This document shows, piece after piece, positions 627 to 29,400 of a DNA stretch of 64,000 nt. Within the stretch, counting starts at the first letter, position 1. Each line of letters opens with the position of its first letter. The DNA is from Gaiellaceae bacterium (GTDB lineage Bacteria > Actinomycetota > Thermoleophilia > Gaiellales > Gaiellaceae), in contig JBHEMZ010000054.1 in assembly GCA_046262315.1 (NCBI GenBank), forward strand, positions 267 to 64,266. The letters run 5' to 3'. Both the position numbers and the translations under genes were made by a program. The notes under the pieces are model-generated. The model did not search any database and had not been told where the DNA came from. It saw nothing but the letters and a program-made list of their open reading frames with translations.

Positions 627-1171
627 GTGCTCGGCGCGACAGCGTCATGGCGAACGATGTGCAGGTCCGGGAGGTTGCGGTAGCGCTCGCCGAGGTCGAA
701 GCCGTAGCCGACGAAGAACTCGTCCGGCACAGTGAAGCCCACGTAGCGGACGGGCAGGTCGTCGACGAGTCGGCGGTACGGCCGGTCGAGCAGCGTCGCC
801 GCTACCAGCGAGGCGGGCCGCCGCAGCGTCAGGATCTTGCGCAGGTAGTTAAGCGTCAGGCCGGTGTCGACGACGTCTTCGACCACGACGATGTCGCGGC
901 CTTCGATCGGCGCGTCGAGATCCTTGAGTAGCCTGATCGAGCCGCCGTTCGAGCCCCCGTTGTACGAGGCCAGCTCGACGAAGTCGACGTGGTGCGCGAT
1001 CGGCGTCGCCCGCGAGAGATCGGCCAGAAACACCATGCTGGCCTTGAGCGGGGCCACGAAGAGGGGCTCGCGTCCCGCATAGTCCGCGGCCACCTCGGCA
1101 CCGAGTTCGGCCACACGCGCGGCGATCTCCTTGCCAGAGAGGTAAACCTCACCGACGCCGGAGCCGCTCAG
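623..1171 (-). CDS. hpt: Hypoxanthine-guanine phosphoribosyltransferase
   Basis: The PRPP-binding motif IVVVEDVVDTGLTL and GYGFDLGERYRNLPDL match the HPRT family, and the size is ~182 aa. The start is uncertain: the only well-placed candidate is a CTG overlapping the upstream stop (CTGA). Confidence 0.8.
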   Translation of the reverse strand: MSGSGVGEVYLSGKEIAARVAELGAEVAADYAGREPLFVAPLKASMVFLADLSRATPIAHHVDFVELASYNGGSNGGSIRLLKDLDAPIEGRDIVVVEDVVDTGLTLNYLRKILTLRRPASLVAATLLDRPYRRLVDDLPVRYVGFTVPDEFFVGYGFDLGERYRNLPDLHIVRHDAVAPST

Positions 1172-1539
1172 GTCGCGAGAGTCAGGCCGTATCGCTGTGC
1201 CAGTCGCTCGATGTCCCGTCGGTAGAAGAGCTTCGCGCGCACGCCTGGGTACCGCTCCCGCAGCTTGCGCAGCTTGCGGTTCTTGCGCGTGACGAGGGAT
1301 TGCTTCATGGTCGTGACCTCGAGGTACAGGTCCTGCTCCGGGAGGTAGAAGTCGGGCGTGAACGCCTCGAGCACGCGGCCGTCCGCGGAGCGCTCGAGCA
1401 CGAAGGTGCGCGGCTCGTACTCCCACCGGAGCCCGTGATAGTCGAGAATCTTCGCGCACTCAAGCTCCACGTCGTTCGCAAACCGCGGCTGGATGGTACC
1501 GGAATATGCCTGGAAAACGGGCATTTCTCCACGCGGCAC
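1168..1539 (-). CDS. Small hypothetical protein with a PD-(D/E)XK nuclease-like motif
   Basis: 123-aa ORF immediately upstream of hpt. The segment TPDFYLPEQDLYLEVTTMK fits the PD...(D/E)xK pattern. No family was recognised beyond that. Confidence 0.45.
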   Translation of the reverse strand: MPRGEMPVFQAYSGTIQPRFANDVELECAKILDYHGLRWEYEPRTFVLERSADGRVLEAFTPDFYLPEQDLYLEVTTMKQSLVTRKNRKLRKLRERYPGVRAKLFYRRDIERLAQRYGLTLAT

Positions 1540-1592
1540 CAGCGTAGCAGCGGCGCCGGATGAGCCCTTGCGCGGGCTCTAGACTCTGCTTG

Positions 1593-2390
1593 ATGCCGCA
1601 CACGGAGCCATTCCGCCTCGCGCACATCTCCGACATCCACTGCGGCGGGTCGCATTTCGTCCCCAGCCTGATGGACCGGGCGATCGCGGAGATCAACGAG
1701 CTGCGACCGGACATTGTCGTCTGCTCGGGAGACCTGACCACCTACGGCTTCAAGCAGGAGTACCTGGAGGCGAAGAGCTACCTCGACAAGATCGAGTGCG
1801 ACGCCTTCGTGATCATCCCGGGGAACCACGATTCGCGGAACGTCGGCTACCTGCACTTCGAGCAGCTCTGGGGCGACCGAAATCCGGTGTTGCGCATGAA
1901 CGGAATCACCGTCGTCGCGGTCGACTCGACGCAGCCCGACCTCGACGAAGGGCAGATTGGTCGCGGGCGCTACTCCTGGATCGAGGAGCAATTCGCGCAG
2001 CCCTCCGACCTCAACATCTTCGTCTTGCACCATCACCTGCTGCCTGTGCCGGGCACCGGGCGCGAGCGCAACATCGTCTTCGATGCGGGCGACGCGATCG
2101 AGTGTCTCCAGCGCGCGGGTGTCGACCTCGTCCTCTGCGGCCACAAGCACGTGCCGTACGCTTGGCGCCTGGAGGACCTCTTCGTCGTGAACACGGGCAC
2201 GGTCTCGTCCACACGGCTGCGCGGCAACACGCGGCCGTGCTACATCGTCGTCGAGATCACGGGCAAGCACGTGGACGTCTGGCGCAAGTACCCGTTCCAC
2301 GGGCAGGAGCGGATCATCCAGTTCTCGACGGAGACGCGCGCCTTCGAGAAGTACACCGACCGCATCGAGGACGAAGTCACCACCCGCTGA
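1593..2390 (+). CDS. Metallophosphoesterase (calcineurin-like phosphoesterase)
   Basis: The motifs HISDIHCG, SGDLTTYG, IPGNHD and VLHHHLLP are the canonical metallophosphoesterase signature. The start was taken at the ATG giving MPHTEPF. Confidence 0.8.
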   Translation: MPHTEPFRLAHISDIHCGGSHFVPSLMDRAIAEINELRPDIVVCSGDLTTYGFKQEYLEAKSYLDKIECDAFVIIPGNHDSRNVGYLHFEQLWGDRNPVLRMNGITVVAVDSTQPDLDEGQIGRGRYSWIEEQFAQPSDLNIFVLHHHLLPVPGTGRERNIVFDAGDAIECLQRAGVDLVLCGHKHVPYAWRLEDLFVVNTGTVSSTRLRGNTRPCYIVVEITGKHVDVWRKYPFHGQERIIQFSTETRAFEKYTDRIEDEVTTR

Positions 2391-2430
2391 TGGGCAGCGT
2401 GCCGGCCGGGAGCCGAAGGCGCCCAGGAAC

Positions 2431-3696
2431 GTGAGGGCGTTGGCGATCATCGATGGCGAGCACCACGCGCCGGTCGTGCGTGACGCACTGGAGACGCTGC
2501 CGCACGAGGTCGTGGCGGCGTGGCTCGCAGGCGGGCGGGAGAAGCTGCGCGGCGGCGAGGACTACGGCGTCCCGCTCGCCGCCGGGCTCGAGGAGGGTGT
2601 GGCGGAATACGGCCCGGATCTCGTCGTCGACCTCTCGGACGAGCCCGTGCTCGGGCCGCCAGAGCGCCTCCGCGTCGCGAGCCGCGTGCTCGCGCTCGAC
2701 CTCCCGTACGTCGGCCCGGACTTCCGCTTCGACCCGCCCTCGGCGCCTCCGGTAGACGTCCCGGCTCTCGCGGTGATCGGGACGGGGAAGCGCGTCGGCA
2801 AGACCGCCGTCACGGCACATGCCGCCCGGCTGCTCGCTGCGGATCGCGCCGTCGTTGTGGTCGCGATGGGCCGGGGCGGCCCGCCGAAGCCCGAGCTGCT
2901 CGAGCGGTCGCCGTCACTCAATGAGCTGCTTTCGCGGTCGCGCGCCGGCTTGCACGCGGCCTCCGACTATCTTGAGATCGCGGCGCTCACGGGCGTCCCG
3001 ACCGTCGGCTGCCGGCGCTGCGGCGGCGGGCTCGCGGGCTCACCGGCTGTCTCGAACGTCGCCGCCGGCGTCGAGCTCGCCGCGGAGCGAAGGCCCGACC
3101 TCGTGCTCCTCGACGGCAGCGGCGCCGCGCTGCCGCCGGTTAAGGCCGATGCCCGCGTGCTCGTGATCGGCGCGGACCAGGGACCGCTCCTGGCGACGGG
3201 CTACCTGAACGCCTACCGCATCCTCGTGGCCGACCTCGTGGTGCTGACGATGTGCGAGCAGGGCACGCCCTACGAGGCGGTACGGTCGGCCGTTGCGGAA
3301 CTCAGCCCGGTGCCCGTCGTGGCGACTGTCCTGCGGCCGCGGCCAACCGCGCGCGTCGCCGGCCGCCGCGTCGGGTTCTTCACCGTCGCGCCGGCCGCCG
3401 CGCACGCGACACTCGCCGAGCACGTGCGTGCCGAGCACGGCGCCGCGGAGGTGGTCGTCTCGGGTCACCTGGCCGACCGGGCGGCGCTCAAGCGGGACCT
3501 CGCCGGGCTCGACGCCGACGTCTTCCTCGTCGAGCTGAAGGCGGCGGCGGTGGACGTCGTGCTCGAGGCGGCGGTCGCGCGCGGCATCGAGGTGGTGCTC
3601 GCCGATGCGGAGGTACGGGCGTTACCCGGCGAGCTCGATCTTGACGGCCGGCTGTGCGCGCTTGCGGACGCCGCCGCGCGGCGGAGCCTGCCGTGA
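2431..3696 (+). CDS. cpgS: Cyclic 2,3-diphosphoglycerate synthetase-like protein
   Basis: 421 aa. The N-terminus is IIDGEHHAPVVRDAL and the P-loop is VIGTGKRVGKTAV, an architecture I recognise from the archaeal cDPG synthetase family. The neighbouring 2-phosphoglycerate kinase gene supports the call. Confidence 0.7.
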   Translation: MRALAIIDGEHHAPVVRDALETLPHEVVAAWLAGGREKLRGGEDYGVPLAAGLEEGVAEYGPDLVVDLSDEPVLGPPERLRVASRVLALDLPYVGPDFRFDPPSAPPVDVPALAVIGTGKRVGKTAVTAHAARLLAADRAVVVVAMGRGGPPKPELLERSPSLNELLSRSRAGLHAASDYLEIAALTGVPTVGCRRCGGGLAGSPAVSNVAAGVELAAERRPDLVLLDGSGAALPPVKADARVLVIGADQGPLLATGYLNAYRILVADLVVLTMCEQGTPYEAVRSAVAELSPVPVVATVLRPRPTARVAGRRVGFFTVAPAAAHATLAEHVRAEHGAAEVVVSGHLADRAALKRDLAGLDADVFLVELKAAAVDVVLEAAVARGIEVVLADAEVRALPGELDLDGRLCALADAAARRSLP

Positions 3697-4601
3697 CAGA
3701 GCCGCGCCGCTTGGAACCGCTGCCGCTCGGCGGGCCGGATGGGCCGCCCTACTCCAAGGGGCTCATGGCCCGCGCGCTGATGGCAACGGGACTACGAGCC
3801 GACCGTGCGTACGAGCTGGCGCGGCGCGTCGAGAAGGACCTGCGCCGCCTCCCGGGGGAGAGCGTCTCGCTGAACCGCATCGGCGAGCTCGCCGTGGAGC
3901 TCTTCGGCGAGCAGGAGGGAACACGCGTCGCGGGCAGCTTGCGCCGCTACCACGGTCTCCAGGAGCTCGACGTCCCGATCGTCCTGCTGGTCGGCGGCGC
4001 GACCGGCACGGGCAAGTCCACCATCGCGACCCAGGCCGCCTACCGCCTCGGCATCACCCGCGTCACCTCCACGGATTTCATCCGCCAGACGATGCGCGCC
4101 TTCTTCTCCGGCGAGTTCATGCCGTCCATCCACTACTCGAGCTTCGAGGCGAAAGTCGCCGGCGAGTCGGAGGACGGGCCCGAGGGCGGCATGCTGCCGG
4201 GCTTCCTCGATCAGACGCGCAACGTCCTCGTCGGCGTGCGCGCGGCGATCGATCGTGCGCTCCAGGAGGGCTGGTCGCTCGTGATCGAGGGCGTGCACCT
4301 CGTGCCTGGGATGCTGCCGCCGATCGACGGCCCGCTCGTGGTCCAGGCCGTCGTTGCGATCGACGACGAGGAGGATCATCTGGGTCACTTCTACATCCGC
4401 GACGCGGCCTCCGAGGGCCTCCGGCCGCTCGACAAGTACGTCTCGCACTTCGGCGACATCCGCGCGCTCCAGGAGTACATCGTCGAACGCGCACGCCGAA
4501 ACGACGTCCCTGTGATCGTGAACGAGGACCTGGACGACGCGGTCGCGGCCGTCATGGAGCTTGTGCTGGAGCGCGCCGAACAAGTACAAACCGTGGCATG
4601 A
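3693..4601 (+). CDS. 2-phosphoglycerate kinase-like protein
   Basis: The N-terminal PYSKGLMARALMATGLRADRAYELARRVE (ATP-cone-like) and the P-loop VGGATGTGKSTIA are typical of the 2PGK family. The GTG start overlaps the cpgS stop (GTGA). Confidence 0.7.
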   Translation: MTEPRRLEPLPLGGPDGPPYSKGLMARALMATGLRADRAYELARRVEKDLRRLPGESVSLNRIGELAVELFGEQEGTRVAGSLRRYHGLQELDVPIVLLVGGATGTGKSTIATQAAYRLGITRVTSTDFIRQTMRAFFSGEFMPSIHYSSFEAKVAGESEDGPEGGMLPGFLDQTRNVLVGVRAAIDRALQEGWSLVIEGVHLVPGMLPPIDGPLVVQAVVAIDDEEDHLGHFYIRDAASEGLRPLDKYVSHFGDIRALQEYIVERARRNDVPVIVNEDLDDAVAAVMELVLERAEQVQTVA

Positions 4602-5608
4602 CTCAGACCGCCGATGAGAAGCAACAGGTCGAGGCCGGTACTGAACGGGCGTGCGGGTGTGAGACATACGCGCGCGTGACGGAGCGTGCGGCGCTTGCGG
4701 GGGCGCGCTGGCTTGGCCGCGCGGATCAGGAAGCGGCCGCGTCGAGCGCGTCGCGTGCGATGTGGGGGGCGCTCAAGATCCAACCGATCGACGGCAAGGT
4801 CGTCGTCGGCGCCGCAGAAGGCCTCGAGGAGCTCGCCGCCGGGCAGCACGTCGGCGCGGGGGGAGAGGAAGTCGACCTCGCCGTCGATCCCATCGAGGGC
4901 GCGGGTATCGTCGCGCGGGGCGCCAGTGGGGCGATGTCCATGGTCGCGGTCGGGCCGGCGGGTTCGCTCCAGACGCTTCCGGACATGTACATGCGCAAGA
5001 TGGCCGTGGGGCCGCGCGCGCTGGGGAAGATCGACCTGCGCGCGCCGATCGCAGACAACGTCCGCGCCATCGCGGATGCGTTCGGCCGGCGTCCCGAGGA
5101 CATCACCACGATCGTGCTCGACCGGCCGCGCCACCACGATCTGATCGAGGAGATCCGACAGGCCGGCGCGCGCATCAAGCTCGTCCAGGACGGGGATGTA
5201 ACCGCGTCGATCTCGGCCGCGATCCGCGGCACCAACGACCATCTCGCCGTCGGGATCGGCGGCACGCGCCAGGCGGTCCTCGCCGCCGCCGCGCTGCGCT
5301 GCCTCGGCGGGGAGCTGCAGGCCCAGCTCTGGCCGACCTCGCGCGGTGAGATCGAGCAGGCCGGCACGCAGGGCATCGACGACATCGAGCGGGTGTTCGG
5401 CATCGACGACCTCGCGCCGAGCGAGGTGATCTTCGCGGCGACCGGTGTCTCGAACGGCGATCTTCTGCGCGGCGTGCGCTACCTCGCGGACAGCGCCCTC
5501 ACGCACACGCTCGTCATGTGCACGCGGTGCAACTGGGTGCGCTTCGTCGACGGCATCCACTTCTTCGCCCGAGAGCGGCGTGAGGAAGTTCGGTTGCCCG
5601 GCTTTTGA
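4598..5608 (+). CDS. glpX: Class II fructose-1,6-bisphosphatase (GlpX type)
   Basis: 336 aa. VDLAVDPIEGAG, GIGGTRQAVLAAAALRCLGGELQAQLWP and FAATGVSNGDLLRGV match GlpX. The ATG overlaps the upstream stop (ATGA). Only the C-terminal part of the 667-aa ORF in the track is used. Confidence 0.85.
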   Translation: MTQTADEKQQVEAGTERACGCETYARVTERAALAGARWLGRADQEAAASSASRAMWGALKIQPIDGKVVVGAAEGLEELAAGQHVGAGGEEVDLAVDPIEGAGIVARGASGAMSMVAVGPAGSLQTLPDMYMRKMAVGPRALGKIDLRAPIADNVRAIADAFGRRPEDITTIVLDRPRHHDLIEEIRQAGARIKLVQDGDVTASISAAIRGTNDHLAVGIGGTRQAVLAAAALRCLGGELQAQLWPTSRGEIEQAGTQGIDDIERVFGIDDLAPSEVIFAATGVSNGDLLRGVRYLADSALTHTLVMCTRCNWVRFVDGIHFFARERREEVRLPGF

Positions 5609-5775
5609 CCCTCGAACGTCCGGCGCGCTGGGCGCGCCCTGCCGAGGATTCCAAGTCAGACGCGTCGGGGTAGCGAGGTGGCTGCGCCGGGCAAAGCCGG
5701 CTCCGCCTATGTTCCGCGGGGTGCGCGCTCTGATTCATGCGGAGAAGCAGATGCCCTCCGGGCTAGACTGGTTCG

Positions 5776-6081
5776 GTGAGCGCGCCGACTAGAGAGGACG
5801 TCATCGAGGCTCTCCGCACGGTCGAGGACCCGGAGCTCGGCATGGACATCGTCGATCTCGGACTGTTCTACGACGTCGAGATCGAAGACTCGCGCGTGAA
5901 GGTTATTCACAGTCTGACGTCGATGGGCTGCCCGGCTGGGGCGATGATCGACGAGGGAATCCGCGAGGCCGCTGCCTCGGTGCCCGGCGTCGAGCATGTG
6001 GATGTCGAGCTTGTCTGGGACCCCGCCTGGACGCCGGAACGTATGTCCGACGACGCCAAATTCATCCTTGGCTTTGGCTGA
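5776..6081 (+). CDS. DUF59/SufT-like Fe-S cluster assembly protein (MIP18 family)
   Basis: 101 aa. The sequence VEDPELGMDIVDLGLFYDVEI...SMGCPAG...VELVWDPAWTPERMS is the typical DUF59 pattern. Confidence 0.8.
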   Translation: MSAPTREDVIEALRTVEDPELGMDIVDLGLFYDVEIEDSRVKVIHSLTSMGCPAGAMIDEGIREAAASVPGVEHVDVELVWDPAWTPERMSDDAKFILGFG

Positions 6082-6091
6082 CGCCAAAGCC
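6070..6091. terminator. Hairpin between convergent genes (GGCTTTGGC-TGAC-GCCAAAGCC)
   Basis: A perfect 9-bp stem with a 4-nt loop. It contains the DUF59 stop codon and abuts the stop of the convergent pseudogene. Confidence 0.45.
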
Positions 6092-6647
6092 TAAGAGTGT
6101 TTGGCGAAACGCTCGTCTAACGTGTAATGCCAGCCCTCCTGGAACTGTGCGGGGAGCGGCTATGAGTTCCTCTAGCGGTTGGCCACCAACGAGGTGATCG
6201 AAAGCCCACCAGGTCGAGACGTGGCGATCATTAGCACGCGCGCTCCGTCATGCCGGTGCACGACGTCTGAGAACAGCCAGCGGTGTTGCTCGACTGCCTG
6301 CCGCCAGCTCTCGCCGCCCGGAAACGCCGTGTCGATTCGAAGCTGGCGCTCCTCGACGAGCTGGTCCACCGGCATCCGTTCAGGTCGCCGTAGTTGCACT
6401 CGCGCAAGCGCCAGTCCTTGAAGATCGGGATCGCGGGGTCGCCGAACGCTATGTCCGCGGTCTCGACCGCGCGAGCGAGATCAGATACGAAAACAGCCAC
6501 CAATGGCTCTGATCCTCGGCGCTCGCCCAGCTCCCCGGCCAGCCGCCTCCCGTCCTCGGAGAGACGGCCCTCAAGCCACCCAGTCGCCCGTCCGCGCGCG
6601 TTGTCTTCCGTAAGCGAGTGCGTCTCGAAGATGACTTGGACGGCCAC
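6091..6647 (-). pseudogene. Histidine phosphatase (phosphoglycerate mutase-like) family gene disrupted by at least 3 frameshifts
   Basis: A continuous family-like sequence is recovered only by switching frame three times: VIFETHSLTEDN...RECNYGDLNG / MPVDQLVEER...VLMI / HVSTWWAFDHLVGGQPLEEL / FQEGWHYTLDE. Confidence 0.65.
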
Positions 6648-7755: not shown

Positions 7756-7879
7756 GGCCCGGATCGTAGGGCCTCGCGCCCGTCGCGCTTCCGGGAGGAA
7801 GTCGTCACCCACGCGCGCGCTTTTCCTCGCTACCGTGAAACCGGAGGGAGGCCCGCGGCCGGCCCCTGAGGAGAAGGAC

Positions 7880-8905
7880 ATGTCCGTTGACGACACGGTG
7901 GTGAGCGCGGCCGAGCTGGCCCGGCTGGCCGAGAAGCTCGGCATCGACGTCGTGGGCGCCGCCCCCGTCGAGCCCTACACGGAGACGGAACGGCACATCC
8001 GCGAACGCCGCGCGCGCGGTCTCTTCGCCGACATGAAGTTCACGATGGCCCAGCCGGACCTCTCATGCCATCCTGAGCGGCTGCTCTCCGGCGCGCGCAC
8101 GGTCGTCTCGGCTGCGCTCTGCTACTACACGCCAGGCCCCGAGCCCGGGCCGGGTGAAGGGCGCCTGCCTCGGTATACCTGGTACGACGCCTACGCGGAG
8201 CTGCGCACGAAGCTCGATGCGCTCGCCCGGCGGCTGGGCGGTTCCTACCGCGTGCTCGTCGACGCCAACCAGCATGTCGACCGCGAAGGCGCCGCGCGCG
8301 CGGGCGTCGGATTCTACGGCAAGAACACGATGCTGATCACGCGCCGGCACGGCTCGTGGGTCGTGCTCGGCACGCTCGTCAGCGACCTCGAGATCGAGGC
8401 CACGCCACGCCTCGAGCTGGACTGCGGCACGTGCACCCTCTGCATCGACGCCTGCCCGACAGGCGCGCTCGACGAGCCCGGAACGCTCGACGCCACGAGG
8501 TGCCTGTCGTACTGGACGCAATCCGCGAGTCCAATGCCCGAGCCGTACCGGGAGGAGATCGGCGCGCAGGTCTACGGCTGCGACATCTGCCAGGACGTCT
8601 GCCCGTGGAACCGCGGCATCGAGAAGCGCCGGGCCGGCCAATCGCTGCCCGAAGGCGCCGAAGCAATCGTCTCGCTCGTGGACTGGCTCGAGTCAGAGCC
8701 GGAAGAGCTCCGCCGCCGCTACGACCGCCTCTTCGTGCCGCGGAACGACGGGCGCCACCTGAGGCGCAACGCGCTCGTCGCGCTCGGTAACACCGGCGGA
8801 GCAGAGCTGCTGGGCACGGCAGAACGATTCGTCGAGGACGCGGACCCGGGCGTCGCGGACGCCGCCGTGTGGGCGGCACGGCGCATCCGTCCCGGTACCG
8901 GCTAG
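7880..8905 (+). CDS. queG: Epoxyqueuosine reductase
   Basis: The 4Fe-4S motifs CGTCTLCIDACPTGA and CDICQDVCPWN, the segment RCLSYWTQ, and C-terminal HEAT-like repeats. A GGAGAAGG Shine-Dalgarno-like (SD, ribosome-binding) element precedes the ATG. Confidence 0.85.
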   Translation: MSVDDTVVSAAELARLAEKLGIDVVGAAPVEPYTETERHIRERRARGLFADMKFTMAQPDLSCHPERLLSGARTVVSAALCYYTPGPEPGPGEGRLPRYTWYDAYAELRTKLDALARRLGGSYRVLVDANQHVDREGAARAGVGFYGKNTMLITRRHGSWVVLGTLVSDLEIEATPRLELDCGTCTLCIDACPTGALDEPGTLDATRCLSYWTQSASPMPEPYREEIGAQVYGCDICQDVCPWNRGIEKRRAGQSLPEGAEAIVSLVDWLESEPEELRRRYDRLFVPRNDGRHLRRNALVALGNTGGAELLGTAERFVEDADPGVADAAVWAARRIRPGTG

Positions 8906-10905
8906 GCCGGCGCGCCGACCTTCAACTGCTGTGCCAGCGCCTTGGCCCGCACCGCGACTTGCTTCCTGAGGTCGGCCGGCTCGAGCACGACCGCCTCGCC
9001 GCGGTCCGACAGGATCTCGCCGACGAGCCACTCGGGCGAGCCCACCGCCGGCTCGGCGATCGCCGCCCCGTCCGTCAGTGGTCGCGCGCCGCGCTCCACC
9101 TTCCAGCGAGCGATCGCCGGCGAGTACCAGATGCGCGCCCGGCGCGCGTCCCGCAGTCGCTGGGGCTCGAAGCCCGCGCGAGGCTCGAACCCATCCTTTG
9201 ACGGCATGGCGCTGCGCATGCGGTCGAGCCGGAACGAGCGCTCTCCGCCGCTCGTGCGATCCCACGTGTGCACGTACCAGTGCGGCAACCGGCGCTCGAG
9301 CGCGTAGGGCTCGACCAGGCGGTGCGACGGAGTCTCGTCACCCTCCTTCAGGTACTCGAGCTCGACGAGGCGGCGATCCCGGATGCCTTCGGTGAGCGCG
9401 GCGATCAGGGACTCCTCGTCGCGGTCGACGTGCGGCTCCGGCGTCTGCGCAAGCTGGAACGCTCCGAACGTCTCCTCGAGCTTGCGGCGGACGCGTTCGA
9501 GCGGGGTGTGCGCGTCCGCAGCGATCATCGGCCCGACGAACTCGAGCGCGAGCCGAATCGCCCGCGCCTCGAGCGGCGTGAGACGCGGCGGCGAGCGAAA
9601 TGTGTCGCCGAAGAGCTCCTTCTCCACGTGCACCGCGTTGCCCTTGAGCTCTGCGTACACGGCGTAACAGCCGCCGCCGAAGTTGACGAGGTTCAGCAAC
9701 GACAGATGCTCCTCGAGCGCTTCGTAGGGGATGTGGAAGCGCTCGACGAGCTCAGCCGCCGGGAAGTCGGCAGACGTCTCCTCGCCGCAGCGGTCGAGCA
9801 GGTACGCGAGCAGTGCCTGGAGGACGCCGAATCGTTCCGGCGCGACCGGGCCCGCCGGCCGCTCGGGCGGCTCGCCCTCCTCAGCGCCCAGTTCAGCCGC
9901 GACGTCGGGACCGGCGCCACCGTGCCGCTTCCGCACGCGTCCAAGTGCCGCCTGCACCTCGCGCACGAGCTTCGGTGGTTCCAGCGGTACGGCGCGACCG
10001 TCCTGGCGCAGGATCCACGAGGCGAGCAGTGGGAGCGAGGCGTACTCGGTGACGAAGACGCCGTCCTCCACTCGGCCGCGGTCGCCGAACACGCGCTCCA
10101 CCCACCAGGCCGTGTCGCCGGCGACCGCGATGCGCGCCTCGCCGGCCGGCTCGCCGACCTGCCACGGGGGGCGGCCCCGAAACTGCTCGACGTCGAACTC
10201 GGCCGGCAGCCGGAAGTCGCGCTCGCGCCGCGTCGCGAGCCGGATGTCGCCACGGATCCGCGCCACGCGAAACGTGCGCATCGCGTCGCGGTCGAGGTCC
10301 TGGCCGACGAGGTACCAGAGTCCGTTGTCCGAGAGCAGCGCGTACGGGTTGACGAGCCGCTCGGAGATCTCGTCCCGGCCGATCGACCAGTACGAGAACC
10401 GCACGGTGCGCTGCTTCGATATCGCCGACTCGAGCTTCGCCAGCCGGCCCGGCATCTCGGGCGAGTAATCCGGGTCGAACACCTCCACCCGCACGGCCGT
10501 CTCCGTGGCCGGCTCCCTGAAGCCCGGCCGTCCGAGCGCCAGGTTCTGAAGCGCGAGGCGCAGCGGCTCCGCATAGGCGAACTTGCCCTCCAGCAGGTAG
10601 AGCGCCGTCTGGAGCGCCGCCAGCTCATCGTCGCGCAGCTTCAGCTCGGGGAGGAAGTACCGCTCAGAGCGCAGCGTGTACAGCTCCTCTCCCGTGAACT
10701 CGTCACGCTGTGAGTCGAGCGGCACGCCCAGTGCCAGCAGCTCGGCTCGGTCGGAATAGAAGCGCCGCGCGAAAGCCTCGTCCGACATCTCGGAATAGCC
10801 CTCGACGTTCTGCTTGACATCGCGCGCGGTGATGGGCCGGCGTTCCGCCATGAGGAAGGCGACCAGCGAGAGCTGCCTGATGAGCTTGTCGGTGTCGTGG
10901 GACAC
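8902..10905 (-). CDS. Fused PafB-PafC-like transcriptional regulator (two tandem HTH-WYL-WCX modules)
   Basis: 667 aa. The first module has an N-terminal HTH and NGLWYLVGQDLDRDAMRTFRVARI. The second has LNLVNFGGGCYAVYAE and HWYVHTWDRTSGGERSFRLDRM. Confidence 0.75.
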   Translation of the reverse strand: MSHDTDKLIRQLSLVAFLMAERRPITARDVKQNVEGYSEMSDEAFARRFYSDRAELLALGVPLDSQRDEFTGEELYTLRSERYFLPELKLRDDELAALQTALYLLEGKFAYAEPLRLALQNLALGRPGFREPATETAVRVEVFDPDYSPEMPGRLAKLESAISKQRTVRFSYWSIGRDEISERLVNPYALLSDNGLWYLVGQDLDRDAMRTFRVARIRGDIRLATRRERDFRLPAEFDVEQFRGRPPWQVGEPAGEARIAVAGDTAWWVERVFGDRGRVEDGVFVTEYASLPLLASWILRQDGRAVPLEPPKLVREVQAALGRVRKRHGGAGPDVAAELGAEEGEPPERPAGPVAPERFGVLQALLAYLLDRCGEETSADFPAAELVERFHIPYEALEEHLSLLNLVNFGGGCYAVYAELKGNAVHVEKELFGDTFRSPPRLTPLEARAIRLALEFVGPMIAADAHTPLERVRRKLEETFGAFQLAQTPEPHVDRDEESLIAALTEGIRDRRLVELEYLKEGDETPSHRLVEPYALERRLPHWYVHTWDRTSGGERSFRLDRMRSAMPSKDGFEPRAGFEPQRLRDARRARIWYSPAIARWKVERGARPLTDGAAIAEPAVGSPEWLVGEILSDRGEAVVLEPADLRKQVAVRAKALAQQLKVGAPA

Positions 10906-14484: not shown

Positions 14485-15795
14485 GTGGAGCCGGACATCC
14501 ACTACGTGCGCAGCGGGGGAGTGTCGATCGCGTACCAGATCGTCGGCGCCGGCGACACGGATCTCGTCTACGTCCCCGACTATGTCTCGAACCTCGTCTA
14601 CGGGTGGGAGTCGCCGCACTGGCGCCGGTTCTACGACCGACTCGCGCAGTCGTTCCGGCTGATCCTCTTCGACAAGCGCGGGACCGGGCTCTCCGACCTC
14701 GGCGGTCACTTCCCCGCACTCGAAACGCGGATGGAGGACCTCCACGCGGTCCTCGAAGCAGTCGGCTCGTCGAGCGCCGTCCTCTTCGGCTCCCACGACG
14801 GCTGCTCCATGGCCGCGCTCTACGCCGCCACCTATCCGGAGCGCACGCGCGCGCTCGTGCTCTTCCATCCGGTGGCAGAAGACCCGACCGCTAGTGACCC
14901 CCGGGAGCAGGCCAGACTGACGCGGATGCGTGACGAGTGGGGAACGCAGGCGTACAGCGACGAGATACTGGAGGCGAGCTGTCCGGAGCTCTTCGAACGC
15001 GAGGAGAATCGCCTCTGGTTCGCGAATTGGCTGCGCGTCGGCGCGAGCCCCTCGGTGGCGTATGCGCTGAACCGCGCCTGGTTCGAGACCGACCTGCGTG
15101 ACGTGCTTCCTGCCGTGCGGATCCCCTCGCTCGTGCTCTTTCGCCGCCACACGGACGCCGAGGAGCCCGCGCTGGACGTCGCGCGCCGGATTCCCACCGC
15201 TCACGCGGCGGTGGTTTCGGGCGACGCGTACTGGGGCGTTTTCCTGTCACCGGAGATCCCCGACGAGATCGAACGCTTCGTCGCCGGCGAGGAGCTCCCG
15301 TCGGTTCCCGACACGGTGCTCGCGACGCTGCTCTTTACGGACATCGCCGGCTCGACAGAACGCGCGGCCGAGCTCGGGGATCGCGCCTGGCGCGAGCTCC
15401 TCACGCGGCACCACACGCTCGTGCGGCGTGAGCTGACGCGCTTCCGCGGCGAGGAGAAGGACACCGCGGGGGACGGGTTCTTCGCGACGTTCGACGGCCC
15501 CGCTCGCGCGATCCGATGCGCGCAGGCCGTGGTCGGCGGCGTGCGCGAGCTCGGCCTCGACCTGCGCGCAGGCGTCCACACCGGCGAGTGCGAGCTCCAC
15601 GACGAGAAGGTGGCGGGACTCGCCGTCTCGATCGGAGCACGCGTCGCGGCGGCCGCCCAGCCGGGAGAGGTGCTCGTCTCGCAAACCGTGAAGGATCTGG
15701 TCGCCGGCTCGGGGCTCGAGTTCGACGACCGTGGCGCTCACTCGTTGAAGGGCGTGCCGGGCGAATGGAGGCTCTATGCCGTCGGCGCTGCCTGA
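14485..15795 (+). CDS. Alpha/beta-hydrolase-fold / class III adenylate-guanylate cyclase fusion (LipJ-like), paralog A
   Basis: The N-terminus has LILFDKRGTGLSD. The C-terminal cyclase domain has LFTDIAGSTE, DTAGDGFFATFDGPARAIRCA and GVHTGECE. The nucleophile-elbow position reads GSHDG. Confidence 0.85.
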   Translation: MEPDIHYVRSGGVSIAYQIVGAGDTDLVYVPDYVSNLVYGWESPHWRRFYDRLAQSFRLILFDKRGTGLSDLGGHFPALETRMEDLHAVLEAVGSSSAVLFGSHDGCSMAALYAATYPERTRALVLFHPVAEDPTASDPREQARLTRMRDEWGTQAYSDEILEASCPELFEREENRLWFANWLRVGASPSVAYALNRAWFETDLRDVLPAVRIPSLVLFRRHTDAEEPALDVARRIPTAHAAVVSGDAYWGVFLSPEIPDEIERFVAGEELPSVPDTVLATLLFTDIAGSTERAAELGDRAWRELLTRHHTLVRRELTRFRGEEKDTAGDGFFATFDGPARAIRCAQAVVGGVRELGLDLRAGVHTGECELHDEKVAGLAVSIGARVAAAAQPGEVLVSQTVKDLVAGSGLEFDDRGAHSLKGVPGEWRLYAVGAA

Positions 15796-17113
15796 GACGC
15801 GCTATGCGAAGAGCGGCGACCTCAACATCGCGTACCAGGTCGTCGGTGAGGGGCCGCTCGACCTCGTCTACGTGCCCGGCTGGATCTCGAACGTCGAGCT
15901 CATGTGGGATGAGCCCGCGCATGCCCACGTACTCCAACGGCTGGCCCGCTTCTCGCGCCTGATCCTCTTCGACAAGCGGGGGACGGGACTCTCTGATCCG
16001 GTTCCGCTCGACCGCCTGCCCACGCTCGAGGAGCGCATGGACGACGTCCGAGCGGTGCTCGACGCCGTCGGCTCCGAGCATACGGCGCTCTTCGGTTTCT
16101 CCGAGGGCGGCCTGATGAGCTTGCTCTTCGCGGCCACGTATCCGGAGCGGACGACGGCGCTCGTCGTGTACGGCATCTTCGCCAAGAGAATCTGGAGCCC
16201 CGACTATCCATGGGCGCCAAAGCCCGAGCCGCGGCGGCGCGAGATCGAGGCGCTGGAGCGGAACTGGGCGGAGAAGATGGATCTCGATCAGCTCGCGCCC
16301 AGCGAGGACGACGCCTTCAAGCGCCGGCTCGCCACCTACTTTCGCCGGAGCGCGAGTCCCGGCGCAGCGGTCGCCCTTCTGCGCATGAACACGCAGATCG
16401 ACGTGCGGGACGTGCTGCCGTCGATCCAGGCGCCGACACTCGTCCTCCATCGCAGCGACGACCGCGACGTGAAGGTGGAGGAGGGGCGTTGGATCGCCGC
16501 CCGCATCCCCGGAGCGAAGTACGTCGAGCTTGCGGGGGATGCCCACACGATGTGGGCAGGCGACACGGACGCGATCGTCGACGAGGTGGAGGCGTTCCTA
16601 ACCGGCGTCCGTCGCGGCCCGGAGCCCGACCGTGTGCTCGCGACCGTGCTCTTCACCGACATCGTCGGCTCGACCGAGCGGGCGACCGAGCTCGGCGACC
16701 GCCGCTGGCGCGAGCTGCTCGATCGGCACCACACGCTCGTGCGTCAGCGGCTGGAGCGCTTCCAGGGCCGCGAGGTGGATACGGCGGGTGACGGCTTCCT
16801 CGCCACCTTCGACGGGCCTGCGCGCGGGATTCGCTGCGCCCGGGCGATCGGTGACGCCGTGCGCGAGCTCGGCGTCGAGATCCGCGCTGGCCTGCACACG
16901 GGTGAGTGCGCGGTCGGCAACGGCAAGGTCAGCGGGATCGCCGTCCACACCGGCGCGCGGGTCGCGGCGAAGGCCGGCGCCGGCGAGGTGCTCGTGTCGA
17001 GCACCGTGAAGGACCTCGTCGCCGGGTCGGGGATCGAGTTCGAGGATCGGGGTGCCCACGAGCTCAAGGGCATGCCCGGCGAATGGCGGCTCTATGCTGT
17101 TTCCAGTGTCTAG
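15776..17113 (+). CDS. Alpha/beta-hydrolase-fold / class III adenylate-guanylate cyclase fusion (LipJ-like), paralog B
   Basis: Same architecture as the upstream gene. The GFSEG nucleophile elbow is intact. The cyclase domain has LFTDIVGSTE, DTAGDGFLATFDGPARGIRCA and GLHTGECA. Confidence 0.85.
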   Translation: MPSALPETRYAKSGDLNIAYQVVGEGPLDLVYVPGWISNVELMWDEPAHAHVLQRLARFSRLILFDKRGTGLSDPVPLDRLPTLEERMDDVRAVLDAVGSEHTALFGFSEGGLMSLLFAATYPERTTALVVYGIFAKRIWSPDYPWAPKPEPRRREIEALERNWAEKMDLDQLAPSEDDAFKRRLATYFRRSASPGAAVALLRMNTQIDVRDVLPSIQAPTLVLHRSDDRDVKVEEGRWIAARIPGAKYVELAGDAHTMWAGDTDAIVDEVEAFLTGVRRGPEPDRVLATVLFTDIVGSTERATELGDRRWRELLDRHHTLVRQRLERFQGREVDTAGDGFLATFDGPARGIRCARAIGDAVRELGVEIRAGLHTGECAVGNGKVSGIAVHTGARVAAKAGAGEVLVSSTVKDLVAGSGIEFEDRGAHELKGMPGEWRLYAVSSV

Positions 17114-26406: not shown

Positions 26407-29400
26407 TCATGGGGCGCAGAGGGTCTTCCCGTTCAGGAAGAACGCTTCGTGGACGTCGGTCGGCCCTGACCCCTGGACGATGCCGCCGCCCGCGATGTAG
26501 ATGCCACCGTCGCAAACCGCGGCTTGGACGCCGTGCCGCGCCGTCGGCATCGGCGAGAGCGCCCGCCAAGAGTTCGCGCCCGGGTCGTAGGCCTCCACGG
26601 TGTTGAACACCTTGCCGCCGCCCTCGCCGCCGATGACGACAATCTCGCCGCCCATCGCGGTCGCGGCGAAGCCGCCGCGCGCCGTCGGCAGCGGCGCGAA
26701 GCCGGTCTTCCACGAGCCGGACGGGAAGTCGTACGCGTCGTTGGCGGTCGTCGTGGCATTGATGTCCTTGTTGCGTCCGCCGATCGCCCAGAACTTGCCG
26801 TTGAGAACGACGGCGTGGAAGTGGTCGCGTGCGCGCGGCATGTCCGGCAGCTGCTGCCACGTGTTCGCAACCGGGTCGTACACGTCGAACCACGGGACCG
26901 CGATGCCGTTGTTCAAGCCGCCGGCGTAGTAGATCTTGCCGTTGTGCACGGCGACCCCGCCTGCGCCGCGCGGCCTCGGCATCGGCGCCCCCTGCGTGAA
27001 CGTGTTCGTCGTCGGGTTGTAGACGTAGACCGAGGCCACTGCCGGCGACGGCCACGACGCGAGTCCGCCGACGTAGTAGATCCGCGCCCCGTACTCGACG
27101 CCTTGAATGTGGTCGAGCGCGGCCGGGAGCGGCGCGACCTCCGTCCACGAGTCGACCGCGGGGTCGTACGCGTACTGATTCGTCCCACCGCCGGCGAGGT
27201 ACAGCTTCCCGCCCGCTTGCACGAACGAGACCTCCTGCCGCGCGACCGGGAGCTTCCCGCGACTCTCCCACGAGCCCACCGGCTTGCCGCTGCCGTCGAG
27301 GACCTCGATGAAGTCCCAGCTTGCCGGGAACTCCGGCGCGGGGCCTGCCGAGGTGGAGATGATGCCGACCGCGAGGCCCCTCGTCGCCGTGAACCAGCCG
27401 GCGGGGATCGGCTCGGCGGCACCGAGCAGAGTTCGCGTACCGGGCGTCCCGTCGATCGTCACGACGTAACTGGGCTGGACGGTCTTCGCAGCCACGTTGA
27501 CCTCGAAGTAGAGATCGATCGCGCTCGGGCCGGGCAGCGCGACCGCAGACGTGCGCGCCGCGCTCGTCACGGCGCCCGCCTCCTTGAGGAAGGCGACGGC
27601 CCCGGGGCCGCCGTTCGCCGAGACGACGATCTTCACGTAGTTGTCTTGGTCGCCGGCCCCGACGAAGAGGCCCATCGACTGGTTGCCCTGCGGCACGAGA
27701 CCGGCGAAGGGGGCGAGGACGCGTGTGTGTGCCGTGAACGAGCCGCTCGTCGGGGGCTTGACGCCGAACTGGAAACCGTACTTCTGCGTGTTCGTCGTTC
27801 CGAGCGCGTCGCCCTCGGCCACCTTGTCGACCGTCGTCACGCCCGCGGCGCCGCCCGCCGTCATGTTGGCCGGGTCGAACAGCGACTCGTAGTTCGCCGT
27901 CCCGTTCGTCATCAACCCGGTGAATCCGAGCCCGAGGAGGCCGCCGGCGCGCGGCGCGTCGTTGTCCCACGAGTACCGAACCGGAATCGTCGTCGCGGTT
28001 CCGTTGGTGCCGTCGACGGCGAACGGGTCGGACGTGTCAGGAAGCGTGTCGTTGTCGTCGTCCGGGTCGTTGAGGTCCGAGATCTTGTCTCCGTCGGCGT
28101 CCTTGGGCACGTCGGCCGCCGAGCACGGGCTCGTCCCGTTGTCGATCTCGTCGGCGTTCTTGAACCCGTCGCCGTCCTCGTCGCTCGTCCACGAGTCGAC
28201 GCCCGTGCAGGTGATCGGTGCAGCGCCGCCGAGGTCGTTCGGCTCGAAGACCACGATCGAGCCGTTGCCGTGGTCTCCGACCCAGATCGTCCCCGGGAAC
28301 GTGGTGCCGTCCCCCAGCGTCGTGACGTCGAGCGGCACCGAGCCGACGGTCGAGAACAGCGCCTGCTTGAGCGTCACCGCGTTCCCGGAGCTCGAAAGCT
28401 CGATCCGGTAGATCTTGTTGTCGAACGACGCGGTGAGGAGATCGCCCTTCAGGGCGCCGCCGAAGTTCGAGGCCGTGTACTCCGTCAAGCCGTTGGTCGA
28501 GGCGGAGAAGCTCGTAAGCGCCCCGCGCACCGAGGGCGGGCGGTAGTCGCATTCCACGGGATTTGCGGTTGGCACGGGCGACTGCTTGTTGAACGTGTTG
28601 GACTGGTTGCCGCGAGTCGGGTTCGGATGGCCACCGTAGTAACCGGCGGCGGAGACGAAGTGCAGGGTGTCCGGTTCGGTCGCCCCCGCCTCGCTGATCT
28701 CGTTGGTGCAGACGCCGGAGGGTCCCTCGTTCTTCGGGATACCGCCCCATCCGGCGTTTCCGCCGTTGTCGATGGTGTACATCCGTCCGCTCGACGTGAG
28801 GACGAGGTCGTACGCGTTCCTGAAGCCCGCGGCGTACACCTGCACCGGGCCGCCTGCGACGACCTTCGCCTGGTTCGTGCCATCGTTTCCGCCGAAGGGG
28901 TCGTACTTGTCGGCCTTGCCCTTGCCCGTCAGCGTCGGCAGGTCGTACGTCGTGTTGCCGATGGCACCGAGGTTGATCTTCAGAATCGCCGCCGACAGCG
29001 CGAATTCAGGCAGCAGCGCAAAGTTGTTCGACGGCGCGCCCTCGTTGGTGTTCCCGCCCTGCGCGACGTACAGCATGTTGGTCGCGGCGTCGAACTGCAT
29101 GCCGTTTGCCGAGTGGTTCTCTTCGGAGCGCGGCAGGCCGCGAACGAGGTCGAGCTTCTGCCACGACGAGCCAGTCCACGTCAAACGAGACACCAGGCTG
29201 GAGTTCGTGTCGAGGCCGAGGTCCACCCCGGCGGGACCCGAGCCGATTCTCGGGTCACTCGATGTCGCGTAGATCACCGGGTTCGCCGCCGTGCCCGTGA
29301 CGAGGATGCCGGTCACGATGCGAGTCATCACGCTCGGGTTCGGCCTGCCGTCGTCGTTGTGGTTCGGGATGTCCCGGATTCCCGTAAGCGTCTCGGTGGC

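Follow-up and report, generated by a model that had tools for sequence, protein, structure and literature searches.

A four-gene operon in a Gaiellaceae bacterium that probably joins a cyclic 2,3-diphosphoglycerate synthesis module to a candidate turnover enzyme

We analysed a window of 64,000 nt (the whole stretch of DNA considered here) from a chromosome of a member of the Gaiellaceae (Thermoleophilia, Actinomycetota). [quoted passage not shown] From these gene products, we infer that the host cell produces cDPG. If true, the compound would not be exclusive to hyperthermophilic methanogens, contrary to the literature, in which it has been reported only from methanogens and is called exclusive to the hyperthermophilic ones (PMC10690619).

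Bacterial genes already carry the name (cyclic) 2,3-diphosphoglycerate synthetase at NCBI and JGI, including that of ORF1's own protein: the database entry matching ORF1 at 100% is '2,3-diphosphoglycerate synthetase [Gaiellaceae bacterium]'. Our literature search returned neither a paper discussing bacterial cDPG proteins nor experiments on a bacterial system, in agreement with what the first-pass annotation of this DNA had supposed, and cDPG goes unmentioned in the genome paper on Gaiella occulta (PMC6741124).

Layout and coding potential of the predicted operon

ORF1–ORF3 are clearly coding, with a GC3 of 0.89–0.91 versus a GC2 of 0.40–0.51, and the GC content of the operon is similar to that of the rest of the window. 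The first-pass annotation had described three ORFs joined by a GTGA and an ATGA start/stop overlap. We re-read the coordinates and both overlaps and found them correct, and the motifs it had listed (IIDGEHHAPV, GTGKRVGKT, PYSKGLMARALMATGL and GGATGTGKST) were all present in the translations. It had, however, overlooked the metallophosphoesterase gene, which is co-oriented with ORF1–ORF3 and stops 40 nt before ORF1, so that the three-gene operon becomes one of four genes. For ORF2, the mechanical first start is an in-frame GTG at 3654; the in-frame GTG at 3693 forms the GTGA with the TGA stop of ORF1. No promoter or terminator was identified at the operon in the window.

Table 1. Genes and junctions of the predicted operon (positions refer to the window)
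Feature	Coordinates	Strand	Remarks
Metallophosphoesterase gene	1560..2390	+	Calcineurin-like, GpdQ/Rv0805-like; ATG 1593 is the likely true start
Spacer, phosphoesterase/synthetase	2391..2430	+	40 nt; AGGAA immediately before the GTG start
Cyclic 2,3-diphosphoglycerate synthetase homolog (ORF1)	2431..3696	+	GTG start, 421 aa
GTGA start/stop overlap, synthetase/kinase	3693..3696	+	Read directly in the sequence; GGAG 7 nt upstream
2-phosphoglycerate kinase family protein (ORF2)	3693..4601	+	302 aa from GTG 3693
ATGA start/stop overlap, kinase/GlpX	4598..4601	+	Read directly in the sequence
GlpX, class II fructose-1,6-bisphosphatase (ORF3)	4598..5608	+	ATG start, 336 aa; variable fourth gene

The synthetase/kinase and kinase/GlpX overlaps are conserved, not accidental. 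Among related loci, an in-frame start overlapped the preceding stop by 4 or 1 nt at 73 of 83 synthetase-to-kinase junctions and at 49 of 55 kinase-to-GlpX junctions, although these counts are somewhat generous because the script takes the start nearest the stop (the chance rate is roughly estimated at 15–20%). The phosphoesterase-to-synthetase junction likewise overlaps by 4 or 1 nt in 70 of 83 related loci, so the gap of +40 nt in the window is atypical.

ORF1 keeps most ligand residues of the crystallised synthetase

The first-pass annotation had asked for a comparison of ORF1 with the Methanothermus fervidus cpgS product, and this returned a full-length homolog. Using phmmer, residues 3–392 of ORF1 aligned with residues 6–427 of the M. 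fervidus cDPG synthetase (cDPGS) chain (PDB 8ORU/8ORK) at E 4.1e-85, and identity in a MAFFT alignment was 42%. Of the 11 published ligand residues that could be mapped onto ORF1, 10 were conserved (E37, K38, K120, R121, K124, T125, D179, E276, E368 and K370). Four of them (K120, R121, K124 and T125) lie in the Walker A motif GTGKRVGKT and do not vary among the 11 aligned sequences; the M. fervidus reference motif is GTGKRIGKT, with the catalytic residues K145, R146, K149 and T150. Invariant across the alignment are also E37, K38, D179, E368 and K370, whose M. fervidus counterparts are E45 and K46, which contact 2,3-diphosphoglycerate (2,3-DPG) from the N-domain of the partner subunit, the Mg ligand D208, and E404/K406. 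The nucleotide-contacting E305 is conserved as E276. The exception is the adenosine-contacting T353, which corresponds to V319 and is changed in ORF1 only, the other ten sequences having T. The published P335 is F in the numbering used here, and the nearby P337 is conserved as P303 of ORF1.

Two N-domain insertions of the M. fervidus enzyme are missing from the bacterial synthetases. Our local Pfam and NCBIfam copies contained no model matching ORF1; PF27272 is a precomputed assignment on the database protein identical to it. As judged by alignment to the structure, ORF1 is a synthetase homolog in which the ligands of 2,3-DPG and Mg and most of those of ATP are kept. Given these ligands and the 42% identity to a crystallised enzyme, its product probably carries out the ATP-driven closure of the 2- and 3-phosphates that yields the cyclic pyrophosphate cDPG.

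ORF2 belongs to the 2-phosphoglycerate kinase family

ORF2 scored 259.9 bits on NCBIfam PRK04220 (cut-off 343) and 264.2 bits on PRK12337 (cut-off 603), its match spanning positions 16–296 of the 306 in the 2PGK model; on the mevalonate-3-phosphate 5-kinase model it reached only 73 bits, far below the 2PGK models. Synthetase-adjacent kinases of Cloacimonadota, Asgard archaea and other lineages reached 295–313 bits on the 2PGK model and were also under the cut-off. By these scores, ORF2, which carries the P-loop GGATGTGKST, is a homolog of the 2-phosphoglycerate kinase family (COG2074) and not a certified equivalog. A search of the PDB returned no relatives of ORF2 at E≤1. The superfamily includes kinases with other substrates, such as plant LPA1. 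The 'ATP-cone-like N-terminus' that had been proposed for ORF2 is weak in the protein itself (PF03477, E=0.17, 12.9 bits) and better founded for its family, in which 24 of 45 homologs match at E≤0.1, the best at 1.4e-5. Family membership and the obligatory adjacency to the synthetase make it likely that the kinase converts 2-phosphoglycerate (2-PG) and ATP to 2,3-DPG.

The two enzymes might instead have drifted in substrate, the kinase and the 'synthetase' making some other phosphorylated or cyclic-pyrophosphate compound (from another 2-phospho acid or a sugar acid), with the phosphoesterase and the sugar-phosphate enzyme in the same pathway. The kinase scores under the equivalog cut-offs would fit this reading, as would a superfamily that includes mevalonate-3-phosphate 5-kinase, identities of only 36–53% between lineages, the missing N-domain insertions, and hosts that are not known thermophiles. 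Against it, all the 2,3-DPG-contacting and transition-state residues of the crystal structure (E45, K46, K145, R146, K149, D208 and K406) are invariant in the eleven sequences. Furthermore, in Bipolaricaulota and several actinobacterial-type loci, phosphoglycerate mutase (PGM) genes lie close to the cluster or are fused to it, an indication that 3-phosphoglycerate (3-PG) or 2-PG is the feedstock. We therefore regard a change of substrate as improbable and retain 2-PG and 2,3-DPG as the predicted substrates. For the host, no PGM type could be assigned from the 64-kb window.

The synthetase-kinase pair recurs across bacterial phyla and Asgard archaea

The order phosphoesterase-synthetase-kinase was present in 80 of 80 Gaiellales genomes (78 of 78 with room), with a kinase homolog directly downstream of the synthetase in all 78 loci with room. 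The flanking HPRT and SufT-like genes are conserved within Gaiellales as well, so synteny inside this order alone proves little. We also compared 24 further non-methanogen synthetase clusters (linkage at ≥60% identity; GC 0.28–0.69). Outside Gaiellales, the kinase adjoined the synthetase in 19 of the 23 evaluable ones. In the methanogens in which cDPG is established, by contrast, neither a kinase (0/29) nor a phosphoesterase (0/20) was found near the synthetase gene.

The synthetase family is large (581 confirmed matches in species genomes and >8000 protein clusters), and public genomes and metagenomes contain many Gaiellales cDPGS genes. The family has members in several bacterial phyla and in Asgard archaea, and its divergence is deep and star-like, at 36–53% identity. 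The genes had initially been called 'archaeal-type'; they are homologs of the cDPG-pathway enzymes, but with this distribution the label is too simple.

A metallophosphoesterase is the best-conserved partner of the pair

The phosphoesterase matches PF00149 at E 3.8e-21 (76.8 bits, gathering threshold 21.5) and contains five metal-binding motifs: DIH25-27, GD57-58, GNHD88-91, HHH157-159 and GHKH194-197. Among solved structures, GpdQ (E 7.4e-12) and Rv0805 (E 8.7e-11) are nearest, both at ∼48 bits. Both enzymes hydrolyse phosphodiester or cyclic phosphate bonds in small substrates built on glycerol or ribose.

The synthetase-kinase pair has its best-conserved partner in this upstream metallophosphoesterase, not in GlpX. 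All 80 Gaiellales loci have it immediately before the synthetase, and homologs (E 1e-34 to 1e-146) adjoin the pair in 16 of 22 evaluable non-methanogen clusters, including those of Cloacimonadota and Asgard archaea; the other six have no adjacent phosphoesterase. Among clusters with an adjacent kinase, the proportion was 15 of 18. The 16 clusters span a GC content of 0.35–0.70 and two domains of life and have the gene in three arrangements (upstream and single-domain, downstream and in tandem with a CBS gene, or convergent), which is hard to explain by inherited synteny. Against locus L084, identity was 55% for the phosphoesterase versus 40% for the two enzymes. The cDPG-linked phosphoesterases are much closer to each other, at 120–300 bits, than the window's enzyme is to GpdQ and Rv0805, and they are often tandem-duplicated, ∼500 aa long and paired with a CBS-domain protein.

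The phosphoesterase family is nevertheless broader than the cDPG module. Sampled regardless of cDPGS, members from Spirochaetales (L093) and Lokiarchaeota (L094) adjoin an HD-domain gene, with neither synthetase nor kinase within 6 kb. The top 120 relatives found for the tandem phosphoesterase included no Methanobacteriales protein; together with the lack of a phosphoesterase near the methanogen synthetase genes, this suggests that the methanogen hydrolase may be a different protein.

The enzyme is a candidate cDPG or 2,3-DPG hydrolase. As a degradative or recycling partner, it might convert cDPG to 2,3-DPG, or 2,3-DPG to 3-PG or 2-PG, so that cDPG would be a pool from which carbon, phosphate and charge can be mobilised instead of a dead-end solute. 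Conserved gene neighbourhood and the chemistry of the superfamily prompt this assignment, which we offer tentatively.

GlpX is an accessory, lineage-specific member

ORF3 is a GlpX-type fructose-1,6-bisphosphatase (FBPase), as had been annotated: it scores 274.2 bits on TIGR00330, over the cut-off of 259.3, and covers positions 7–307 of the 307 of PF03320 (E 1.7e-104). GlpX is adjacent in 54 of 76 Gaiellales loci and missing from the other 22. A distant cluster (L156/L159/L166) also has it, and seven other sequence clusters have a TAL/FSA-family gene in its place. Nine clusters have one or the other as their fourth gene, and enzymes of both families act on fructose 6-phosphate. GlpX is thus an accessory, lineage-specific member of the operon and not part of its core. 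The first-pass annotation had tied cDPG synthesis to gluconeogenic flux through GlpX; in view of the 22 loci without GlpX and the seven clusters with a TAL/FSA replacement, this tie can be kept only more loosely, as a recurring association with fructose 6-phosphate enzymes. In this lineage, co-translation of GlpX would mean that expression of the committed gluconeogenic step accompanies that of the triose-level branch point (2-PG/3-PG).

A narrower account keeps the same two enzymes and product and limits the functional unit to the synthetase-kinase pair, the phosphoesterase being unrelated and GlpX a housekeeping FBPase that is there by chance. The six clusters lacking a phosphoesterase, the family members away from cDPG genes in L093 and L094, and the general synteny implied by the conserved HPRT and SufT-like neighbours are all compatible with it. 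So are the Gaiellales loci without GlpX and the position of the FBPase gene in G. occulta, where it adjoins an aldolase gene (PMC6741124). It accounts poorly, however, for adjacency of the phosphoesterase in 16 independent clusters with three gene orders in two domains of life, and for the overlap of its stop with the synthetase start in most loci. We consider a unit restricted to the pair unlikely and favour the four-gene operon with a candidate turnover enzyme.

Possible roles of cDPG outside the methanogens

In methanogens, the heat-protective solute cDPG has been placed on a branch of gluconeogenesis that passes through 2-PG and 3-PG, and a role as a store of carbon and phosphate has been considered possible (PMC1224877, PMC10690619). 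A hydrolase activity is known from Methanothermobacter in membrane-bound and soluble form (van Alebeek 1994 and Sastry 1992, cited in PMC1224877), for which that review names no gene.

The bacterial pathway might end functionally at 2,3-DPG, or at low, regulatory levels of cDPG (as a cofactor for 2,3-DPG-dependent phosphoglycerate mutase or an allosteric effector), in which case cDPG would be neither a bulk solute nor a reserve. Protection from heat is not needed by the hosts, which live in soil, sediment and aquifers, and the central-carbon links (GlpX, TAL/FSA, PGM) suggest a metabolic over an osmotic logic. However, hundreds of species genomes keep a dedicated, ATP-consuming cyclase whose catalytic residues are intact, and cyclisation would be superfluous for a cofactor role. 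Such an endpoint therefore seems very improbable to us, and we keep cDPG as the predicted product.

The broadest version of our proposal is that Gaiellales and members of several further bacterial phyla and of the Asgard archaea make cDPG through a portable three-gene module in which the phosphoesterase is the candidate hydrolase. There, cDPG would serve as a buffer of carbon, phosphate and energy that can be recharged and is connected to fructose-6-phosphate metabolism (through GlpX or TAL/FSA), and not as a thermoprotectant. Taken as a whole, this is speculative, and we think it rather doubtful that every part of it holds.

Comparison with known systems

The cDPG pathway of M. fervidus, Methanothermobacter and Methanopyrus uses the same two protein families as found here, 2PGK and the synthetase. 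With the M. fervidus synthetase, ORF1 shares the Walker A motif GTGKR[VI]GKT, the partner-subunit E/K residues for 2,3-DPG, the Mg ligand and an ELKAAAVDV motif. The host, in contrast, is a mesophile-type soil actinobacterium, in which cDPG is the predicted product. The synthetase and kinase genes lie at separate sites in M. fervidus and Methanothermobacter, whereas here they belong to a translationally coupled operon; a conserved phosphoesterase partner and the absence of the two N-domain insertions further set it apart from the methanogen system.

The phosphoesterase shares its fold family and five metal-binding motifs with GpdQ, the Enterobacter aerogenes glycerophosphodiesterase, and with Rv0805, the class III cyclic-nucleotide phosphodiesterase of M. 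tuberculosis, which is binuclear like GpdQ, but it is distant from both. ORF3 belongs to the same family as E. coli GlpX and M. tuberculosis Rv1099c by TIGR00330 and PF03320, and differs from them in position, being translationally coupled to a 2PGK-family gene. Finally, for the candidate phosphoesterase we propose the reaction of the Methanothermobacter cDPG hydrolase, the conversion of cDPG to 2,3-DPG.

Overlapping genes for a cDPG synthetase homolog, a 2-phosphoglycerate kinase family protein and GlpX

The first-pass annotation had described three ORFs joined by start/stop overlaps. Their coordinates, the GTGA at 3693–3696 and the ATGA at 4598–4601 were all confirmed in the DNA, and the four peptide motifs it had quoted are all present in the translations. 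In this genome of ∼70% GC, third-position GC of the three ORFs is 0.89–0.91 versus a second-position GC of 0.40–0.51, and we therefore regard them as genuine coding regions. ORF2 has a second in-frame GTG at 3654; we prefer GTG 3693 because a GGAG sits 7 nt upstream of it.

Genes of the operon and other genes of the window
Gene	Position	Strand	Description
ORF divergent from operon	1168–1539	−	123 aa, coding-like GC3 0.85, no Pfam match
Metallophosphoesterase	1560–2390	+	Co-oriented with ORF1
ORF1, cDPG synthetase homolog	2431–3696	+	GTG start, 421 aa
ORF2, 2-phosphoglycerate kinase family	3693–4601	+	GTG 3693 better candidate start
ORF3, GlpX	4598–5608	+	ATG start, 336 aa
QueG-like epoxyqueuosine reductase	7835–8905		Convergent with 8902–10905
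WYL-domain protein	8902–10905	−	667 aa, two WYL domains, PafC-type HTH, WCX domain
Hydrolase–cyclase paralog 1	14485–15795	+	N-terminal alpha/beta-hydrolase, C-terminal class III adenylate/guanylate cyclase domain
Hydrolase–cyclase paralog 2	15776–17113	+	Same domains; adjacent to and overlapping paralog 1
Malectin/Kelch protein	26407–30525	−	1372 aa, N-terminal malectin, ASH/HYDIN-type Ig-like domains, C-terminal Kelch beta-propeller

ORF1 found no match in local copies of Pfam or NCBIfam. Its proposed identity as a cDPG synthetase homolog was borne out by comparison with the crystallised Methanothermus fervidus enzyme (PDB 8ORU/8ORK), to which residues 3–392 aligned with an E-value of 4.1e-85 and 42% identity. 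The structure paper names E45 and K46 in the N-domain of the partner subunit, the P-loop residues K145, R146, K149 and T150, the Mg ligand D208, and further E305, T353, E404 and K406 (PMC10690619). By alignment mapping, ORF1 keeps the equivalents E37, K38, K120, R121, K124, T125, D179, E276, E368 and K370, the sole difference being V319 in place of T353. P335 of the paper was left out of this count, as no proline occurs there in the author's numbering; the nearby P337 corresponds to P303 of ORF1 and is conserved. Two short archaeal N-domain insertions are absent from the bacterial synthetases in the alignment. The alignment behind the neighbour-joining tree also included a third deposited cDPG synthetase structure, PDB 9SXB (436 aa, rich in K, E and I), which shares 51% identity with the M. 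fervidus enzyme; our literature search found no associated paper.

ORF2 matched two NCBIfam 2-phosphoglycerate kinase models over their full length, with 260 and 264 bits, both below the curated cut-offs (343 and 603, respectively), and reached only 73 bits against the sister mevalonate-3-phosphate 5-kinase model. No related solved structure was found at E ≤ 1. The ATP-cone-like N-terminus ascribed to ORF2 is marginal for this protein itself (E = 0.17) and real for the family, PF03477 being matched by 24 of 45 kinase homologs (best E = 1.4e-5). The reading of ORF3 as a GlpX-type FBPase holds, as it passes the equivalog cut-off (274.2 vs 259.3 bits; PF03320, E = 1.7e-104).

A phosphoesterase, rather than GlpX, is the constant partner in Gaiellales

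Scanning one genome per GTDB species yielded at least 581 confirmed synthetase genes. We examined the neighbourhoods of the best 80 of these hits, all from Gaiellales/Thermoleophilia MAGs. A phosphoesterase gene lay immediately upstream of the synthetase in 80/80 loci, and the kinase immediately downstream in all 78 that had room for it. GlpX came next after the kinase in 54 of 76 loci; in the other 22 it was missing from the ±8 kb locus, with a SufT-like gene directly next. Two further neighbours, an HPRT gene and the SufT-like gene, are kept close to the locus as well, so synteny within the order proves little and distant lineages are needed.

The junctions in related loci are tight. Taking the start nearest the stop by script, which makes the counts somewhat generous, we observed a 4- or 1-nt start/stop overlap with an in-frame start between synthetase and kinase in 73/83 loci, and a 4- or 1-nt overlap between kinase and GlpX in 49/55, far above the 15–20% that we roughly estimate for chance. 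The phosphoesterase stop overlaps the synthetase start in 70/83 loci; the window is an exception, its phosphoesterase gene ending 40 nt before ORF1. An event particular to the window genome, either an insertion or a change of frame, may have created this spacer. In 2388–2434, the phosphoesterase stop runs into an ATG at 2390 (TGATG), much as it runs into the synthetase start in many relatives; this ATG opens a frame of only 14 codons that closes at 2434 and is out of frame with ORF1.

A promoter/terminator scan of 1100–6400 returned nothing and is uninformative in DNA of 70% GC, and Rfam gave no match at E ≤ 1 in 1000–6500, so that no riboswitch or leader was identified. A GC-rich hairpin at ∼5622–5638, after glpX, is not put forward as a terminator, as it folds no better than shuffled sequence (z = 0.02). 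The divergent ORF upstream of the operon leaves only ∼20–50 nt for a shared promoter region.

The synthetase–kinase–phosphoesterase association extends across phyla

Searching 1.84 billion representative proteins without a profile returned 266 clusters at E ≤ 1e-30, whose members are named as other Actinomycetota, Bipolaricaulota/Acetothermia, Cloacimonadota, and the Asgard archaea Borrarchaeum and Hodarchaeota. Neighbourhoods were examined locus by locus and, using tblastn, in 80 loci from metagenomes that a non-Gaiellales alignment had recovered, and single linkage at ≥60% identity grouped their synthetases into 25 clusters. One of these, Methanobacteriales-like, holds 36 loci including M. 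fervidus and Methanothermobacter, with a nearby kinase in 0/29 and a nearby phosphoesterase in 0/20. Among the 24 other clusters, the kinase adjoins the synthetase in 19 of 23 evaluable ones and a homolog of the window phosphoesterase in 16 of 22; 15 of 18 kinase-bearing clusters also have the phosphoesterase.

Four layouts recurred. The order phosphoesterase–synthetase–kinase–TAL/FSA (a transaldolase/FSA-family gene) was found in seven clusters (GC 0.42–0.69), and the same order ending in GlpX in Gaiellales and in one cluster (L156/L159/L166) whose synthetase is only 45–46% identical to ORF1. Seven Cloacimonadota-like clusters carry synthetase–kinase–CBS protein–tandem-duplicated phosphoesterase (∼500 aa), and Asgard and other loci have synthetase–kinase–tandem phosphoesterase, arranged either in one direction or convergently. 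An iPGM gene overlaps the synthetase in Bipolaricaulota, and archaeal-type PGM genes lie 1–4 kb away in several actinobacterial-type loci. In Methanobacteriales, a RimB-like (PF05618) gene usually follows the synthetase (L091, 8405–8935; L092, 5914–6492; many of L105–L124), a pairing of which we found no mention in the cDPG literature consulted.

Could the bacterial genes be a recent acquisition from archaea? The label 'archaeal-type' is not well supported as a direction of transfer: synthetase identities between lineages are uniformly 36–53%, and a quick neighbour-joining tree, star-like and not robust, places Gaiellales nearest other Actinomycetota and the low-GC bacterial lineage L084 closest to methanogens. 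Nor is recent horizontal transfer supported by composition or setting. Operon GC (0.69–0.73) equals the window mean, without compositional anomaly, and the operon lies in core chromosome, the window also carrying the dcw cell-wall/division cluster through ftsZ, SecDF, queA, the glycine-cleavage system and a PafBC-like regulator.

The WYL-domain gene (8902–10905) looks like a fused PafB–PafC-like regulator. Elsewhere in the window, the tandem hydrolase–cyclase paralogs combine two domains in an unusual pairing, and the malectin/Kelch gene likely encodes a large secreted or surface carbohydrate-binding protein.

The phosphoesterase as a candidate hydrolase

The window phosphoesterase is calcineurin-like (PF00149) with all five metal-binding motifs, and likely starts at ATG 1593, from where its homologs begin to align. 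Among solved structures, the glycerophosphodiesterase GpdQ (E = 7e-12) and the cyclic-nucleotide phosphodiesterase Rv0805 come closest to it. Compared with L084, it is 55% identical, and the synthetase and kinase 40% each. The Asgard tandem phosphoesterase as query recovered 334 relatives, mostly from Asgard archaea and also from Bathyarchaeota, Spirochaetales and others, all annotated only generically. None of the best 120 came from Methanobacteriales, and no phosphoesterase gene was seen near methanogen synthetase genes.

For the reverse association, we picked two family members without regard to cDPG synthetase, from Spirochaetales (L093) and Lokiarchaeota (L094). Both are as similar to the window protein as the cDPG-linked ones (E = 1e-40 to 1e-44), and no synthetase or kinase gene lies within 6 kb of either. 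In each, an HD-domain phosphohydrolase gene follows the tandem phosphoesterase, the ends overlapping or nearly so (L093, 7619–8218; L094, 7629–8213), and this pair may be a second conserved module of the family. The association thus holds strongly one way only: a cDPG pair usually comes with the phosphoesterase, but the phosphoesterase family is wider. Because of this one-directionality, and with our confidence lowered by these two loci, we propose the window protein only tentatively as a candidate cDPG/2,3-DPG hydrolase, the balance leaning somewhat against it.

The Cloacimonadota-like form is a tandem duplication of two metallophosphoesterase domains, and a small CBS-domain protein accompanies it in every case (L087, 8304–10232; L089, 8359–10299; L095–L099, L110, L137, L142, L147, L150, L157 and L163). 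The pairing suggests that an adenosine-nucleotide ligand regulates the enzyme. Other phosphoesterases also flank cDPG genes: a GDPD glycerophosphodiester phosphodiesterase on a Borrarchaeum-like Asgard contig (L088, 3271–4041) and a 5′-nucleotidase-type metallophosphoesterase in Cloacimonadota (L087, 4260–5888).

Proposed pathway and relation to known cDPG systems

The following scheme rests on four genes of one orientation that are closely coupled in relatives, on homology, on the conservation of catalytic and substrate residues, and on a neighbourhood kept across phyla. The kinase would convert 2-PG to 2,3-DPG and the synthetase 2,3-DPG to cDPG, each at the cost of one ATP. The binuclear phosphoesterase would reopen the cyclic pyrophosphate or dephosphorylate 2,3-DPG, returning carbon and phosphate to 3-PG/2-PG. 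A review draws cDPG as branching off gluconeogenesis via 2-PG and 3-PG, considers that it may store carbon and phosphate in Methanothermobacter, and describes a cDPG hydrolase activity, its gene not named (PMC1224877). Whether GlpX or TAL/FSA, the variable fourth gene comes from a family that acts on fructose 6-phosphate, which fits a looser form of the link to gluconeogenic carbon flow drawn in the first-pass annotation. GlpX is, however, not a defining member. The first-pass interpretation is thus partly supported: its enzyme identities stand, but it over-stated the coupling of cDPG synthesis to gluconeogenesis through GlpX and overlooked the more conserved partner, the phosphoesterase.

Databases already carry the identification itself. 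ORF1 is 100% identical over 99% of its length (418 aa) to NCBI 'MAG: 2,3-diphosphoglycerate synthetase [Gaiellaceae bacterium]', encoded on a 65-kb contig, and JGI gives the name cDPG synthetase to many of at least 8000 homologous protein clusters at 90% identity; annotation pipelines thus already know the bacterial genes. In line with the earlier statement that no bacterial cDPG system with this coupling was known to have been studied experimentally, a full-text literature search found no paper discussing a bacterial cDPG system. In the genome paper on Gaiella occulta, compatible solutes are treated but cDPG is not mentioned (PMC6741124). Two Gaiella sp. MAGs, L054 and L064, carry the cluster.

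Should the module be inactive or its product different, a widely propagated database annotation would be wrong. If it is active, the ecology of cDPG would shift from thermoprotection towards a possible desiccation, osmotic or phosphate–carbon reserve in soil bacteria, and a candidate gene for the cDPG hydrolase activity would be at hand. Mesophilic, high-GC, operon-organised enzyme sets would also become available for production of cDPG, an extremolyte under commercial development (PMC10690619; bioRxiv 2025.02.21.639460). cDPG has been stated to be exclusive to hyperthermophilic methanogens (2023 structure paper, PMC10690619). Our comparison shows two things that we did not find in the literature searched: complete, catalytically intact synthetase–kinase pairs occur commonly in bacteria and Asgard archaea, beyond the methanogens, and there the two genes and a conserved phosphoesterase gene make up a compact module with translational coupling.
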